The notes under the pieces are model-generated. The model did not search any database, had not been told where the DNA came from, and saw only the letters and a list, made by a program, of their open reading frames with translations. Positions 3,096 through 63,622 of a DNA stretch of 64,000 nt are shown here, piece after piece. Each line of letters opens with the position of its first letter. Position 1 is the first letter of the stretch. Origin of the DNA: Escherichia phage FL23; sequence record PP400787; one strand, 5' to 3'. The translations under genes and the position numbers were made by a program.

Positions 3096-3121
3096 AGGAC
3101 TCCTTCGGGAGTCCTTTTTTA
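3096..3121 (+). terminator. rho-independent terminator
   Basis: AGGACTCC-TTCG-GGAGTCCT hairpin followed by TTTTTTATTTT. Confidence 0.75.
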
Positions 3122-3144
3122 TTTTCCAAAGATTGCATAAAGTT

Positions 3145-3187
3145 GTTTACAGTACGGTTCCTTTGTGATAGTATTATCTTACACAAA
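3145..3187 (+). promoter_or_regulatory. early promoter with stem-loop (PeSL-like)
   Basis: -35 GTTTAC (3145-3150), 18-nt spacer, extended -10 TGaTAGTAT; the -10 sits in the loop of inverted repeat TTTGTG/CACAAA. Confidence 0.55.
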
Positions 3188-3201
3188 CAAAGGAGAATAA
3201 A

Positions 3202-3534
3202 ATGAAAACGATTAATCTGAACGCTGCAGTTAAAACTAAATGCTTCAATGGTAAATATAATGAAACTATGTGGTTCTTAATGGCAGTTGAAGGTGATATT
3301 ATTGAAGTAGAAACAACAGAAGGTATGGGAACAGATTTCACCTTTACAATTCAAGTTCATAATTTCTTTACTGGTTGGATTTATGAATTGAATAAAGTAA
3401 TCGTTGGAAAAATTGAACAAAATGAATTAGGTGAATGGTATTATGTTACAGCTCGCCAACGTGCCGAACGCTTAATTGAGAAGATGAAAAAAGTTGGTAA
3501 ACTTGACATGCAGCATTGGAAAGTAGTAAAATAA
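3202..3534 (+). CDS. hypothetical early protein (30.8 position)
   Basis: AGGAGA SD then ATG; preceded by an early promoter with stem-loop. Confidence 0.7.
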   Translation: MKTINLNAAVKTKCFNGKYNETMWFLMAVEGDIIEVETTEGMGTDFTFTIQVHNFFTGWIYELNKVIVGKIEQNELGEWYYVTARQRAERLIEKMKKVGKLDMQHWKVVK

Positions 3535-3536
3535 TT

Positions 3537-3575
3537 GTTTACTTTTGTACAGGACATGATATTATATACCTGTAC
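3537..3575 (+). promoter_or_regulatory. early promoter with stem-loop (PeSL-like)
   Basis: -35 GTTTAC (3537-3542), -10 TGaTATTAT inside inverted repeat GTACAGG/CCTGTAC. Confidence 0.55.
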
Positions 3576-58305: not shown

Positions 58306-59002
<697 letters not shown>

Positions 59003-59014
59003 TTTCACAAAGTT

Positions 59015-59054
59015 GTTTACATACTGATGAGGTAGTGATACTATTACCTCATCA
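59015..59054 (+). promoter_or_regulatory. early promoter with stem-loop (PeSL-like), ip locus copy 1
   Basis: -35 GTTTAC (59015-59020); extended -10 TGaTACTAT in the loop of perfect 10-bp inverted repeat TGATGAGGTA (59025-59034) / TACCTCATCA (59045-59054). Confidence 0.6.
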
Positions 59055-59075
59055 AAATTAATTAGGAAAATAAAA

Positions 59076-59333
59076 ATGAAAACTTTCAAAGAGTTTGCTA
59101 CAAAAACTACTATCACTGAATCTTCCCACGGTATGGAAGTAAAGCTTGGAATGGCTTTAGCTGAAGCTGAGCGTCTTTTCTCTCGTATTAAAGAACTTGC
59201 TGCTGCGGTCGATCCTTCATCTTTTAAAGGAGACCAAACTAAAGTTAAAGCACTTTTAGCATTATGCTCCGATGCAGGAGAAATTGCTAAAAATGGCTCT
59301 AAGATGAAGAAACGATTAGAAGATTTAAAATAA
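59076..59333 (+). CDS. internal head protein with N-terminal capsid-targeting sequence (ip-locus gene)
   Basis: N-terminus MKTFKEFATKTTITE resembles the T4 internal-protein CTS (MKTYQEFIAE) with a candidate gp21 cleavage site I-T-E; own early promoter; AGGAAA SD. Confidence 0.7.
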   Translation: MKTFKEFATKTTITESSHGMEVKLGMALAEAERLFSRIKELAAAVDPSSFKGDQTKVKALLALCSDAGEIAKNGSKMKKRLEDLK

Positions 59334-59345
59334 TTTCACAAAGTT

Positions 59346-59383
59346 GTTTACATAGGGTTTTAGTTGTGATACTATTACCCTAT
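59346..59383 (+). promoter_or_regulatory. early promoter with stem-loop (PeSL-like), ip locus copy 2
   Basis: -35 GTTTAC (59346-59351); same GTGATACTAT -10 core; flanked by imperfect inverted repeat ATAGGGT/ACCCTAT. Confidence 0.55.
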
Positions 59384-59409
59384 CAAAACAAAACCAAATG
59401 GAAATCAAA

Positions 59410-59643
59410 ATGAAAACTTACCAAGAATTTATTGCTGAAACTGCTGATGTAAAAGTTGAGTTTATTTACACTGGCAAGAAAGATAAAATGGGTGAAATGC
59501 CTCATGGAGTTCTTCGTGATGCATTAGATAATTTCGGTCAACTCGCCGCAGAAGATTACGGTGATAAAATTGTTGTTACTGGTCCTGCTGCAGTTATTGA
59601 AAAATGGGCAGCAGAAAATAAATCAATTTTTCGTAAAAAATAA
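59410..59643 (+). CDS. internal head protein with canonical CTS (ip-locus gene)
   Basis: Begins exactly MKTYQEFIAE at the second in-frame ATG (track start 59398 adds MEIK); own early promoter. Confidence 0.7.
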   Translation: MKTYQEFIAETADVKVEFIYTGKKDKMGEMPHGVLRDALDNFGQLAAEDYGDKIVVTGPAAVIEKWAAENKSIFRKK

Positions 59644-59683
59644 GTTTACTTTTAGATAGGGTAGTGATACTATTACCCTATCT
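59644..59683 (+). promoter_or_regulatory. early promoter with stem-loop (PeSL-like), ip locus copy 3
   Basis: -35 GTTTAC (59644-59649); GTGATACTAT in the loop of perfect 10-bp inverted repeat AGATAGGGTA (59654-59663) / TACCCTATCT (59674-59683). Confidence 0.6.
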
Positions 59684-59701
59684 ACTACTGAGGAGAATAA
59701 A

Positions 59702-59887
59702 ATGAAACGTTGTGAATTAATTCGAAATGTTGCTATTGCAATTTCTGCTTCCGCTTTTAGTTTTTCAATGTTTGTTGGATTTATATGTGGATTATTGACT
59801 ACAGCAGAAAATGTGTTTTCACTTGTAGTAGCATTTTTAATTGGTTTAATTGCTATTGTTATGGATAAAATTTCTAAAGGTGAATAA
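59702..59887 (+). CDS. small hydrophobic membrane protein (61 aa)
   Basis: GAGGAGAATAAAATG strong SD; two predicted hydrophobic segments; own early promoter. Confidence 0.6.
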   Translation: MKRCELIRNVAIAISASAFSFSMFVGFICGLLTTAENVFSLVVAFLIGLIAIVMDKISKGE

Positions 59888-60285
59888 TGAACGTTGAATA
59901 TTATGTATATGCGGATTACGAAAATAATCCGTCTAAAGATGAAGATAATCGTTTAGGTGTAGATGCTTTCGATTCCCCTGCGGCGGCATGGCAATGGGTT
60001 GAAAGAACCGATATTCCTTACCGTTATATTGAAGTGGTTGACCACGCAGGAAACAAGTATCCTAAGGAAGCATATGTTGCTTCCGGGAAGGTAAATTTCC
60101 TTTTGTTTGCAGGTGATAATTATTATCCCCGTGGTGGGTATACCGATTTAATTGCTAAAGCATTCTCTGAAGATGAACTCCGTGACATTATCAAAGAAAA
60201 TGAAAACAAACCGATGGATTCTAATCGCTTTGATTGGTGGCAAATCGTAAATGCTAATACTCACACTATTGTTGATGAAGGCTGA
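59887..60285 (+). CDS. hypothetical protein
   Basis: TAATG coupling; 132 aa. Confidence 0.65.
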   Translation: MNVEYYVYADYENNPSKDEDNRLGVDAFDSPAAAWQWVERTDIPYRYIEVVDHAGNKYPKEAYVASGKVNFLLFAGDNYYPRGGYTDLIAKAFSEDELRDIIKENENKPMDSNRFDWWQIVNANTHTIVDEG

Positions 60286-62464: not shown

Positions 62465-63028
62465 ATGAAAACCTATGCCGAATTTTTAACCGAAGCAGCA
62501 AAATTACCATCTGAAGCAGATCTTACTAAAGTATTCTTCCAATTGGACCCAAAAGACCGCGGCGATTTTCTTAAGTGGAAAGCTAAAGCTATTGAAATGT
62601 ACAACATCGATAATAGTTCTTTTACAATGAGTCAAGAAAATAAATTCAATAAAGCATTTTTCAAAATTTCTAAGAAATTGGCATCTGGCGCTCAGGTTCC
62701 TAAATCTGTGTTAGCTACTCCTGAACGCGCACCTGTTAAAATTTCTAAGAATATGTTCGACACTAAAAAATACGTTAATGCTTTGAATAAAGCTCTTGAT
62801 GCATTGGATGATGCAAAGAAGGCAGCCCGCGATCTTCAAGACGTGTACACCGATTTTGACCGCAAAACTAAAGGTTCTATTTCAAATAGCGAACGCAATA
62901 GTGTAAGTGTTTATTCTGATAGCCTTGATGTTCTTGGCGATGCGTATACTGAAATTAAAAATCGTATTAACACTGCATCTAAGCTAAAAGCTGCTGCAGA
63001 AGCTATAATAAGTAAACTAGGTAAATAA
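62465..63028 (+). CDS. internal head protein with CTS (IpIII-like)
   Basis: N-terminus MKTYAEFLTE matches the CTS consensus with L-T-E cleavage site; 187 aa; AAGGA SD; terminator follows. Confidence 0.7.
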   Translation: MKTYAEFLTEAAKLPSEADLTKVFFQLDPKDRGDFLKWKAKAIEMYNIDNSSFTMSQENKFNKAFFKISKKLASGAQVPKSVLATPERAPVKISKNMFDTKKYVNALNKALDALDDAKKAARDLQDVYTDFDRKTKGSISNSERNSVSVYSDSLDVLGDAYTEIKNRINTASKLKAAAEAIISKLGK

Positions 63029-63036
63029 TTTTAAAT

Positions 63037-63061
63037 CCCTATCTAAATGATAGGGCTTTTT
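63037..63061 (+). terminator. rho-independent terminator after the IpIII-like gene
   Basis: CCCTATC-TAAAT-GATAGGG hairpin followed by CTTTTT. Confidence 0.7.
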
Positions 63062-63184: not shown

Positions 63185-63214
63185 GTTTACATCTCTGTTC
63201 TTCCATGGTACTAT
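63185..63214 (+). promoter_or_regulatory. early promoter
   Basis: -35 GTTTAC (63185-63190), 18-nt spacer, extended -10 TGgTACTAT (63206-63214). Confidence 0.55.
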
Positions 63215-63521: not shown

Positions 63522-63622
63522 GTTTACGCAGGCTCATGATTGAGATATTATGAGCCTATAATTTGACGATAGAGTATTATACTCCTACGGATTTTAAATC
63601 TCAATTAACCTAAGGAAATACT

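Follow-up and report, generated by a model that had tools for sequence, protein, structure and literature searches.

What are the short, promoter-bearing spacers which separate the small genes between 57B and trna.4 in Escherichia phage FL23, and which role do their inverted repeats play? In the window, i.e., the whole stretch of 64,000 nucleotides that was analysed (PP400787), a first-pass annotation had viewed them as promoter-early-stem-loop (PeSL) cassettes. This identification is supported. The order of AT-rich block, -35, -10, stem-loop, Shine-Dalgarno sequence (SD) and ATG between small variable genes is that of the published PeSLs: an AT-rich upstream region, a sigma70-type promoter with -35/N17/-10, a stem-loop over the -10, an SD and an ATG (Arbiol 2010, PMC2839356; Comeau 2014, PMC4122927). 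Probably, we are dealing with PeSL-like cassettes of the T-even type in the hyperplastic ipI locus, the hairpin being an optional accessory which most likely acts in the sense RNA. The finding is real, yet already known: it dates back to 1994 (Repoila et al.) and to the PeSL papers of 2010 and 2014.

The locus and its genes

The window is assigned to Tequatrovirus. The 1.36 kb queried (58544-59900) are 100% identical to phage FL44; the identity to Yersinia phage PST, the phage dealt with in the 2014 PeSL paper, is 99% over 721 bases, the entire region compared, and the RB15 record from the 1994 study (Z35082) matches at 94.5%. The gene order 57B, ip5, ip6, trna.4, all on the plus strand, is that of the hyperplastic ipI locus. 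Some records label the upstream neighbour 57B (ORF 58544-59002, phrog_755) as Acb1 / 2H phosphodiesterase. The internal head protein gene ip5 (59076-59333; phrog_3499, E 1e-49) is termed ip5 or IpV in JK08, RB15 and PST, and its product starts with MKTFKEF, a capsid-targeting leader. The internal protein gene ip6 (59410-59643; phrog_8111, E 1e-52), ip6 or IpVI in other records, has the leader MKTYQEFIAE and a second possible ATG upstream at 59398. Downstream follows a gene for a small membrane protein resembling T4 trna.4 (59702-59887, phrog_1692).

The T4 proteins Ip1, Ip2 and Ip3, those characterised so far, each block one specific GmrSD-type restriction enzyme. The ip loci comprise genes of injected proteins, and cassettes as described here allow such counter-defence genes to be swapped as ready-to-express modules. 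Modular swapping of this kind bears on host range and on strains for phage therapy.

Anatomy of the three cassettes

All three cassettes are intergenic and share the layout GTTTAC-N14-GTGATACTAT. It had been proposed that they are three tandem units of one design. GTTTAC-N14-GTGATACTATTACC is indeed common to all, and a repeat search unites them in a 71-nt direct-repeat family whose unit D1, starting at 58987, already takes in the final four codons of 57B (DLK and the stop). Cassette 3, however, departs from the proposed design: it lacks AGTTG and reads ATAAGTTTAC, not AGTTGTTTAC. Immediately 5' of GTTTAC are TAATTTCACAAAGTT in cassettes 1 and 2 and AAAAAATAA in cassette 3.

Cassette 1 (59000-59075, plus strand, 57B to ip5) consists of an AT-rich upstream block, promoter, stem-loop and SD. 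GTTTAC is located at 59015-59020 and the -35 hexamer TTTACA at 59016-59021. The arms TGATGAGGTA (59025-59034) and TACCTCATCA (59045-59054) form a perfect 10-bp inverted repeat, 100% complementary, the loop of which is the TGn/-10 core GTGATACTAT (59035-59044) with the hexamer TACTAT at 59039-59044. The SD AGGA (59064-59067) is followed, after N8, by the ATG at 59076. The promoter attains a 9/12 match and possesses the TG; transcription probably starts near A59051. T4 carries the identical sequence. In cassette 3 (59641-59701, plus strand, ip6 to trna.4; GTTTAC 59644-59649, core 59664-59673) the arms TAGATAGGGTA (59653-59663) and TACCCTATCTA (59674-59684) are perfectly paired over 11 bp around a 10-nt loop identical to that of cassette 1, and the SD GAGGAG (59690-59695) precedes the ATG at 59702 by N6. 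Thus, the claim that the -10 core sits in the loop of a perfect repeat in copies 1 and 3 is borne out, as is the claim that pairing is kept although the arms differ: 3/10 positions are different between cassettes 1 and 3, and 3/3 differences are compensated. Cassette 2 (59331-59409, plus strand, ip5 to ip6; GTTTAC 59346-59351, core 59366-59375, ATG 59410) does not pair in the same register. Here, a 7-bp stem, ATAGGGT (59352-59358) with ACCCTAT (59377-59383), encloses the core in an 18-nt loop.

As RNA, cassettes 1 and 2 fold with -17.4 kcal/mol (z -3.56) and -19.4 kcal/mol (z -3.76), and cassette 3 with a centroid of -18.5 kcal/mol (z -3.69). With z from -3.6 to -3.8, 0/200 shuffles were equally stable. 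These RNA stems comprise 12-14 bp at -17 to -20 kcal/mol and lie 22-25 nt past the upstream stop codon. In the cassettes a purine-rich segment of the spacer is complementary to a pyrimidine-rich segment right behind the -10. The distances between 3' arm and ATG are 21, 26 and 17 nt in cassettes 1, 2 and 3, with the SD outside of the arm; a helix which sequesters the SD or the start codon, as in T4 e, soc, 49 and I-TevI, is not formed by cassettes 1-3. A covariance scan of 58900-59800 against Rfam 15 returned only two hits at chance level (E 0.29 and 0.95), far under the gathering scores.

The promoters of cassettes 1 and 2 read TTTACA-N17-TACTAT, that of cassette 3 reads TTTACT-N17-TACTAT, all with TG at -15/-14. 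They fit the PST/T4 PeSL consensus TTTACW-N17-TAYWAT (Comeau 2014, PMC4122927) and also agree with T4 early promoters as described under the term 'uber' (UP/-35/TGn/-10). By its sequence, each intergenic unit is a sigma70 early promoter of the UP/-35/TGn/-10 type with an SD and the first codons of a small gene behind it; thus, every gene has a promoter of its own, a strong early one in the case of the small injected-protein genes. All three sites are annotated as predicted early promoters in the records of fPS-90 and fPS-65. The T4 record AF158101.6 lists no promoter features between 60000 and 80000 and therefore supplies no independent promoter set for the ip locus.

Stems at other early promoters

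The same layout had been claimed for two further sites of the window, both on the plus strand. At 3537-3575 (GTTTAC 3537-3542, -10 TATTAT 3560-3565) this applies: a 7-bp stem, GTACAGG/CCTGTAC (3547-3553/3569-3575), encloses TATTAT in a 15-nt loop (DNA fold z -3.35), and the promoter belongs to the same class as the cassettes. The site at 3145-3194 (GTTTAC 3145-3150, -10 TAGTAT 3169-3174) is of a different design. The spacer segment TCCTTTGT (3159-3166) pairs across a 20-nt loop with ACAAAGGA (3187-3194), and this 3' arm is the SD of the ORF 3202-3534; in stability, the RNA fold at this site does not exceed shuffled sequences (z -1.5). An additional hairpin promoter, absent from the first-pass annotation, was found at 63522-63557 on the plus strand (GTTTAC 63522-63527, -10 TATTAT 63546-63551). 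Its arms (63530-63540/63547-63557) form an 11-bp RNA stem of -19.8 kcal/mol (z -3.25). The plus-strand early promoter at 63185-63214 has the same consensus and no stem (RNA fold z -0.33; no DNA structure), i.e., a promoter of this type does not need a hairpin.

The strict early-promoter pattern GTTTAC-N17-19-TAnnAT matches 33 times on the early strand vs 2 times on the other, genome-wide. Perfect stems of at least 7 bp between spacer and downstream region, scored in a rebuilt FL44 genome, are present at 10/33 early promoters vs 5.5% of chimeric left/right halves and 3.6% of random positions, and stems of at least 9 bp at 5/33 vs 0.3-0.4% of the controls. The enrichment has a binomial P of ~7e-6, or ~2e-4 once paralogues are collapsed. 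Thus, the genome-wide scan for promoters with inverted repeats suggested at the outset sustains the first reading: such repeats are not equally frequent around other sequences, where the rate is ~4-6%.

A stem of at least 8 bp in register is found in 13/97 distinct GTTTAC-N14-GTGATACTAT promoters, with 1.7 expected and a maximum of 6 in 2000 permutations. These 13 sort into about seven unrelated arm families, and these are the arms with which the identical geometry occurs in IMG/VR. In-register pairing amounts to 49.4% vs 43.0 ± 1.2% in shuffles, of which 0/500 reach the observed value, and vs 36-42% when the register is slid; the covariation score is 0.265 vs 0.188. The stem pattern is real and statistically solid. 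Stem carriers, however, are only ~13-30% of early promoters. The assertion that structure rather than sequence is conserved is supported by the unrelated arms in the same geometry, but it does not hold throughout: several natural cassettes have no stem.

Gene exchange at the cassettes

A role of the cassettes in gene shuffling, as surmised in the first-pass annotation, is supported by the related loci. The window and 12 relatives present nine distinct arrangements between 57B and trna.4, i.e., ip5-ip6, ipI, ip5-ip9-ip7-ip8, ip5-ipI, ip9-ip7, ip6, ip7, none and ip5-ip7, and every junction lies within cassettes; gene content changes exactly there. In the 12 relatives, stop codon, -35 and 5' arm, which make up the 5' half of the cassette, segregate with the gene upstream; the 3' half, consisting of 3' arm, 5' UTR and leader codons, segregates with the gene downstream. 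This places the crossovers inside the cassette. As deduced from a plain, not phylogeny-aware comparison of the 12 related loci, they fall in the loop/core and in the -35 block. The T4 ipI/trna.4 cassette is a hybrid: its 5' part is that of cassette 2, its 3' part that of cassette 3. DCP2 without ip5 and slur11 without any ip gene are natural deletion derivatives. Judged by their sequences, DCP2, slur11 and the T4 hybrid junction are consistent with an excision of mini-circles by recombination between neighbouring elements.

Genes are thus gained, lost or replaced via crossovers in the cassette at the common blocks TAATTTCACAAAGTTGTTTACATA and GTGATACTATTAYC, and exchange between cassettes appears to be homologous recombination over identical blocks of ~14-33 nt. 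At the ip locus, the 3' arm is present in just two alleles (CTCATC and CCTATC) and the 5' arm in a few types. The ip9-to-ip7 cassette of RB15, N2, Pu-Krd-SF7 and Mosigvirus SQ17 is stemless (z +1.0), and so is the ip5-to-ip7 cassette of SV76 (z -0.6). The existence of such hybrids demonstrates that the hairpin is dispensable. Presumably, the functions in promotion and recombination are independent of it.

What the hairpin may do

In the PeSL papers the stems are proposed to be intrinsic terminators or attenuators; terminator and promoter would stand back to back and each gene would be a transcription unit of its own. Distance from the upstream stop codon and stability of the RNA stems speak for this, and in phi1 the stem-loop of PeSL211/210 lowers lacZ about as much as rrnB T1 (Arbiol 2010, PMC2839356). 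This only published terminator assay was carried out with a G/C-rich RB49/phi1 stem, however, and the T-even elements are weaker, AT-rich analogues (Arbiol 2010, PMC2839356). An intrinsic terminator is a G+C-rich hairpin followed by a U-run; in cassettes 1-3 the 8 nt 3' of the stems contain just 0-3 T (AAATTAAT, CAAAACAA, CTACTGAG). A terminator scan flagged 0 of these three stems, yet canonical terminators with T-runs exist nearby (3096-3122 and 63037-63061). We consider this explanation unlikely, and for the T-even type the 'terminator' half of the published PeSL name does not appear to be supported by the sequence. A literature search for T4 transcript-end maps (cappable-seq, TSS and terminator studies) found none for T4/T-even cassettes.

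Alternatively, the inverted repeat might act in DNA, where a hairpin or cruciform would stimulate copy-choice or homologous recombination between cassettes, by stalling replication or by being cut by a structure-specific nuclease, or would modulate opening of the -10. The crossovers at loop/core and -35 block would suit such a role, and cassettes 1 and 3 with their perfect palindromic arms fold at the DNA level, too (z -4.2 to -4.3). Further, the 3' arm of cassette 2 is complementary to the 5' arm of cassette 3 across ip6; upon excision, the circle would thus regain a cassette with paired arms. On the other hand, a loop of 10 nt is unfavourable for cruciform extrusion, and stemless cassettes have recombined too. 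In the PST orthologue of cassette 3 four arm positions differ, with one full compensation and two G·U pairs; it is stable as RNA (-13.8 kcal/mol, z -2.1), not as DNA (-2.2 kcal/mol, z -1.0). Finally, G·T mismatches are tolerated far above A·C in the sense strand of the stems (32:10 and 30:6, i.e., ~3-5:1, counts which rest on partly related sequences), unexpected for a two-strand DNA structure. Against a chimeric background contaminated by paralogues the asymmetry is only marginal (P 0.02-0.9); this background is unsound because chimeras of paralogues recreate real stems and wobbles (p0 0.6-0.9), and a plain 50:50 test was used alongside. The asymmetry is suggestive only. Action in DNA is somewhat less probable still than termination, and a cruciform-assisted opening of the promoter, in particular, is unlikely considering the length of the loop, the asymmetry of the wobble pairs and the fold of the PST cassette as DNA. 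The stems may also be functionless by-products of paralogous gene conversion and of templated (quasi-palindrome) mutation. The paucity of arm alleles at the ip locus, the persistence of stemless hybrids in several phages of two genera and the many strong early promoters without stems are in line with this. It is improbable, however, in view of a geometry of 10-bp stem and 10-nt loop which recurs with ~7 unrelated arms at other promoters, of pairing and covariation above shuffled and slid controls, and of a strand asymmetry of wobble pairs which DNA-templated mutation would not predict. Two 10-bp arms with centres 20 bp apart, straddling the -10, might suggest that a dimeric protein, for instance a repressor of early promoters, binds to the DNA there. 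This was rejected as very improbable: the arms are unrelated between promoters of the same geometry, and thus there is no common recognition sequence.

Taken together, the missing T-run, the G·T excess and the RNA-only stem of PST favour an element of the sense RNA over terminator and cruciform; a canonical terminator or DNA cruciform role for the hairpin is unlikely. With a probable +1 at about 59051, the transcript from the cassette's own promoter would start inside the 3' arm, and the complete hairpin would consequently exist only in RNA reading in from upstream. In such read-in RNA the hairpin most likely delimits the upstream message at its 3' side, be it as attenuator, exonuclease barrier or insulator.

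This leads to a proposal which we offer tentatively, considering it rather less than an even bet: spacers of T4-type early promoters may double as read-through insulation in sense RNA, with two pairing classes and wobble-tolerant arms. In one class the spacer would pair with the segment right after the -10 and cap the upstream message; in the other it would pair with its own SD and silence translation from upstream transcripts. G-rich 5' arms (e.g., GATGGGGTA) could, by G·U wobble, keep pairing with any pyrimidine-rich 3' allele recombined in. If true, wobble-tolerant arms would permit gene shuffling with structure retained. Such a logic of read-through insulation is absent from the published PeSL papers, in which the stems are taken for terminators.

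Comparison with known systems

The closest relatives are the PeSL-like elements of the T-even ip loci. As far as the account in Arbiol 2010 (PMC2839356) goes, 'PeSL-like sequences' at the two T-even IP loci are to be credited to Repoila et al. 1994. The locus is the same, ip5/ip6 equal IpV/IpVI, and the cassettes are the same; no essential difference separates them. Comeau 2014 (PMC4122927) also proposed the same role, the shuffling of ip genes; according to the legend of the PST figure there, the stems are located immediately 5' of the promoter, but in the present cassettes they span the -10.

The PeSLs of RB49 and phi1 are likewise composite units of AT-rich block, -35, -10, stem-loop, SD and ATG, located intergenically in hyperplastic regions (Arbiol 2010, PMC2839356). 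Their stem is often positioned between the boxes or over the -10, and indels and gene replacement are observed in both systems. They differ by near-perfect TTGACA/TATAAT boxes and polyG/polyC stems, whereas those of the ip cassettes are richer in AT and have no T-run. Experiments on RB49/phi1 demonstrated terminator activity and mini-circles, and the T-even elements were termed analogues, not homologues (PMC2839356).

In T4 e, soc, 49 and I-TevI, too, a promoter is embedded in DNA from which the 5' strand of an RNA helix is transcribed; long read-through transcripts form this helix, those from the internal promoter do not (reviewed by Uzan and Miller 2010, PMC3014915). These, however, are late promoters and the helix sequesters SD or AUG, whereas in cassettes 1-3 it leaves the SD free. 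The site at 3145-3194 resembles this T4 promoter-in-hairpin control in that its spacer is complementary to its own SD, a feature of about 16% of early promoters (37/226 vs 14.5 expected). Insulation of sigma54 promoters (bioRxiv 10.1101/086108) relies on a CT-rich anti-SD, a pyrimidine-rich segment proposed to silence downstream translation upon read-through. It involves another sigma factor and other organisms and is relevant to the SD-pairing class, i.e., the 3145 site, only.

A more distant parallel, for which Arbiol 2010 (PMC2839356) includes a reference by way of comparison, are the integrons. The ip cassettes share with integron cassettes the small single-gene module with inverted repeats and the variable arrays; they differ in that no integrase is present, each module has its own promoter and exchange is apparently by homologous recombination. 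In integrons, small single-gene modules lie between the imperfect inverted repeats of the attC hairpin sites, and gene number and order vary from array to array.

Three promoter cassettes in the ipI locus

The three tandem intergenic early-promoter units, 57B-ip5 (cassette 1, 59000..59075), ip5-ip6 (cassette 2, 59331..59409) and ip6-trna.4 (cassette 3, 59641..59701), form a single 71-nt direct-repeat family according to sequence reading and a repeat search. The first-pass annotation had described perfect inverted repeats around the -10 core with compensatory arm changes, and the same two approaches recover them in cassettes 1 and 3. The arms of cassette 1 (59025-59034 / 59045-59054) are perfectly complementary, as are the 11-bp arms of cassette 3 (59653-59663 / 59674-59684). 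In both, the distance between the arms is exactly the 10-nt TGn/-10 core GTGATACTAT. The arms of the two cassettes differ at three positions, all three of which are compensated. The proposed common layout of all three units needs two corrections: cassette 3 reads ATAAGTTTAC, not AGTTGTTTAC, and the stem of cassette 2 is shifted, with 7 bp out of register and a loop of 18 nt. RNA folds of cassettes 1-3 range from -17.4 to -19.8 kcal/mol (z -3.6 to -3.8), and 0/200 shuffles were equally stable. Elsewhere in the window, the promoter-in-hairpin claimed at 3537 has the same layout, whereas at 3145 the 3' arm is the Shine-Dalgarno (SD) of the next gene and the folding energy is ordinary (z -1.5). 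A hairpin promoter beyond those listed earlier is located at 63522-63557; the early promoter at 63185 is without a stem.

The ORFs around the cassettes are gp1 dNMP kinase, 57A, 57B, two small genes, a 61-aa membrane protein gene, trna.3, trna.2, the tRNA cluster and segB, i.e., the T4 order 1-57A-57B-ipI-trna.4 on the early strand. The two small genes match the PHROG families of internal head and internal virion proteins (E 1e-49 and 1e-52) and are named ip5 and ip6 (IpV, IpVI) in the records of JK08, fFiEco06 and PST. By gene order, family matches and annotation, the cassettes sit within the hyperplastic ipI locus. Over 58544-59900 the window shares 100% identity with Escherichia phage FL44, and 778 phage records match this region, mostly from T4-like phages of Escherichia, Shigella and Yersinia. 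57B (58544-59002), immediately 5' of cassette 1, belongs to phrog_755 ('RNA ligase') and in some records is called anti-CBASS protein Acb1 or 2',3'-cyclic phosphodiesterase; going by the Acb1 annotation, a known counter-defence gene adjoins the genes of injected proteins.

Inverted repeats are specific to early promoters

The window and three further pieces, whose overlaps were checked to be identical, were joined into the whole FL44 genome. The strict motif GTTTAC-N17-19-TAnnAT has 33 early-strand occurrences and two on the opposite strand. At 10/33 early promoters the spacer can form a perfect stem of at least 7 bp with the 30 nt 3' of the -10, compared with 5.5% of chimeras whose left and right halves come from different promoters and 3.6% of random genome positions. 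Stems of at least 9 bp are found at 5/33 promoters versus 0.3-0.4% in the controls. The binomial P for the enrichment is 7e-6, or 2e-4 with paralogues merged. Inverted repeats thus are not equally frequent inside and outside of promoters; because the control rates are far below the promoter rate, they are specific to early promoters. The hairpin-promoter pattern is genuine and exceeds chance by a wide margin.

At several other early promoters an inverted repeat is contained entirely in the spacer, as in CCACAAGGACTGTGG (CCACA...TGTGG, running into TGn), e.g., at window-frame coordinates -37340, -17035, -41834 and 83095 on the FL44 early strand. This third stem position matches the subclass of promoter-early stem-loops (PeSLs) with the stem 'between -35 and -10'.

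Structure is kept while sequence is free

Scanning IMG/VR with GTTTAC-N14-GTGATACTAT yielded 112 DNA stretches, which together with other loci gave 97 distinct spacer/downstream combinations. An in-register stem of at least 8 bp touching the core is present in 13/97, versus an expectation of 1.7 when partners are permuted (at most 6 in 2000 permutations). Their arms group into about seven families unrelated in sequence: TGATGAGGTA, GATAGGGTA, TGGTGGAGTT, GTGTAGGAGC/TGGTAGGAGC, GGTGTAGGATG, CCGGAAGTTT and TGGTAGAAGACT. In an ungapped alignment of all 97, made without selection for pairing, 49.4% of cells are paired compared with 43.0 ± 1.2% after shuffling (reached in 0/500) and 36-42% with the partner slid. 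The covariation score reaches 0.265, compared with 0.188 in shuffles and 0.14-0.18 after sliding. The unrelated arms and the excess of pairing and covariation bear out the earlier proposal that structure rather than sequence is conserved: the geometry is preserved and the sequence is free, in a minority of promoters only.

Gene shuffling across phages

In the window and the relatives set against it, the 57B-to-trna.4 interval has nine distinct gene arrangements: ip5-ip6 (window, JK08, fPS-90, PST), ipI (T4), ip5-ip9-ip7-ip8 (RB15, record Z35082 of the 1994 study), ip5-ipI (RB5), ip9-ip7 (N2, Pu-Krd-SF7, Mosigvirus SQ17), ip6 only (DCP2), ip7 only (JoYop), no ip gene (slur11) and ip5-ip7 (SV76). 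In all cases the stop codon, upstream block, -35 and 5' arm, which make up a cassette's 5' half, accompany the upstream gene, and its 3' half (3' arm, 5' UTR, SD, leader codons) accompanies the downstream gene. The T4 ipI/trna.4 cassette consists of the 5' part of window cassette 2 and the 3' part of cassette 3, and the DCP2 and slur11 arrangements look like deletions between cassettes. From the halves tracking their own flanking genes, the T4 hybrid and the deletion forms we infer crossovers within the shared blocks TAATTTCACAAAGTTGTTTACATA and GTGATACTATTAYC. Judged by sequence, the cassette arms are barcodes of shuffling events.

In cassettes 1 and 2 the direct repeat already starts within coding sequence, at 58987-59002 (57B end) and 59318-59333 (ip5 end). 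It reaches the last four codons of both genes, which end DLK* (...DDLK*, ...EDLK*) with identical GATTTAAAATAA; the exchange unit therefore takes in the final codons of the upstream gene. A circle arising by recombination between the cores of cassettes 2 and 3 would carry a properly paired cassette; this would not be so for ip5. Across ip6, 59376-59388 (cassette 2 3' arm) is complementary to 59651-59663 (cassette 3 5' arm) over 13 nt (92%).

The ip9-to-ip7 cassette of four phages from two genera combines a CCTATC-type 5' arm with a CTCATC-type 3' arm and forms no hairpin (z +1.0), and in SV76 the ip5-to-ip7 cassette is unpaired as well (z -0.6). As such natural cassettes exist, a cassette can do without its stem.

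The cassette of this locus, TTTCACAAAGTTGTTTAC-N14-GTGATACTAT-AACCCTATCAAC...GAGGAGAATAAAATG, is also present in another genus, in Klebsiella phage JD18 (Jiaodavirus, 1262-1345). It is flanked by a trna.4-like gene and by a gene without annotation in the record that occupies the place of 57B. Identity to window 59661-59733 (cassette 3 and trna.4 start) is 93% over 73 nt, and the JD18 flanks gave no megablast match. The JD18 stem is shifted (GGGTT/AACCC).

The hairpin as a probable sense-RNA element

A stem next to a promoter may operate as a canonical terminator, as a DNA cruciform or in the transcript. The sequence argues against canonical terminators: the 8 nt after each stem in cassettes 1-3 include 0-3 T and no T-run, and a terminator scan flagged none of these stems, whereas canonical terminators with T-runs are nearby at 3096-3122 and 63037-63061. 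According to standard sigma70 geometry, the promoter's own transcript would start about 7 nt past the -10, inside the 3' arm, so both arms would be present only in RNA coming from upstream. In 265 distinct promoter segments, sense-strand mismatches in stems over the -10 are G·T versus A·C at 32:10 and 30:6 (P 5e-4 and 3e-5 against 50:50; weaker against the chimeric background, which is itself paralogue-contaminated). Yersinia phage PST 1050-1770 (minus strand) is 99% identical to window 58990-59710, and many of the roughly 20 differences are in hairpin arms. In PST cassette 3 one pair is fully compensated (A-T to G-C) and two G-C pairs have become G·U; the cassette retains a fold at the RNA level (-13.8 kcal/mol, z -2.1), not at the DNA level (-2.2 kcal/mol, z -1.0). 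The missing T-run, the G·T excess and the RNA-only folding of PST cassette 3 make a sense-RNA element on read-through transcripts more likely than either a canonical terminator or a DNA cruciform. Such an RNA hairpin might serve as a boundary, exonuclease barrier or attenuator.

The PST 5' arm GATGGGGTA is also located 3' of ip7 in RB15, N2 and JoYop and can pair with both 3' arm alleles if G·U is allowed. The terminator at 63037-63061 (CCCTATC-TAAAT-GATAGGG-CTTTTT) has the arm heptamers of cassette 3 in reversed order. It follows a 187-aa ORF (62465-63028, start MKTYAEFLTEAAK) with a leader resembling those of internal proteins, positioned past tRNA-Arg and the small-RNA region and without an upstream early-promoter cassette.

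Promoters pairing with the Shine-Dalgarno

A second, recurrent design has a spacer complementary to the SD of the very gene that the promoter serves, in the window 3159-3166 with 3187-3194. Complementarity of at least 6 nt is present in 37/226 promoter segments versus 14.5 expected (maximum 27 in 500), and of at least 7 nt in 18 versus 4.2. The SD would be sequestered in read-through RNA only. Further FL44 early-strand promoters of this kind are outside the window, at window-frame coordinates -36852, 67299, 70193 and 80122. The literature examined contained no description of SD pairing at T4-type early promoters. The same logic is known from T4, where the hairpins at e, soc, 49 and I-TevI involve late promoters (PMC3014915), and the design resembles the insulation reported for sigma54 promoters (bioRxiv 10.1101/086108).

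Comparison with known systems

PeSLs were defined in RB49 and phi1 as AT-rich / -35 / -10 / stem-loop / SD / ATG units of hyperplastic regions, with the stem frequently over the -10 or in the stretch separating it from the -35; for phi1/RB49 elements, activity as promoters and terminators was demonstrated, as were mini-circles (Arbiol et al., 2010, PMC2839356). The T-even elements are analogous, are built on T4 early promoters and have weaker, AT-richer stems (Arbiol et al., 2010); T4 early promoters are UP/-35/TGn/-10 promoters (Hinton, 2010). As cited by Arbiol et al. (2010), PeSL-like sequences at both T-even IP loci had been seen by Repoila et al. (1994). The PeSLs of PST and T4 were catalogued with the consensus TTTACW-N17-TAYWAT, and the IP differences between the two phages were remarked on (Comeau et al., 2014, PMC4122927). 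PST carries exactly this ip5-ip6 locus, and the fPS-90 and fPS-65 records annotate early promoters at all three cassette sites. The cassettes display every defining PeSL feature that can be tested by sequence, which supports the first-pass interpretation as PeSL-like cassettes. As such they are already known, at this very locus; the novelty that remains concerns how the stems are read at the RNA level and the SD-pairing promoter class.
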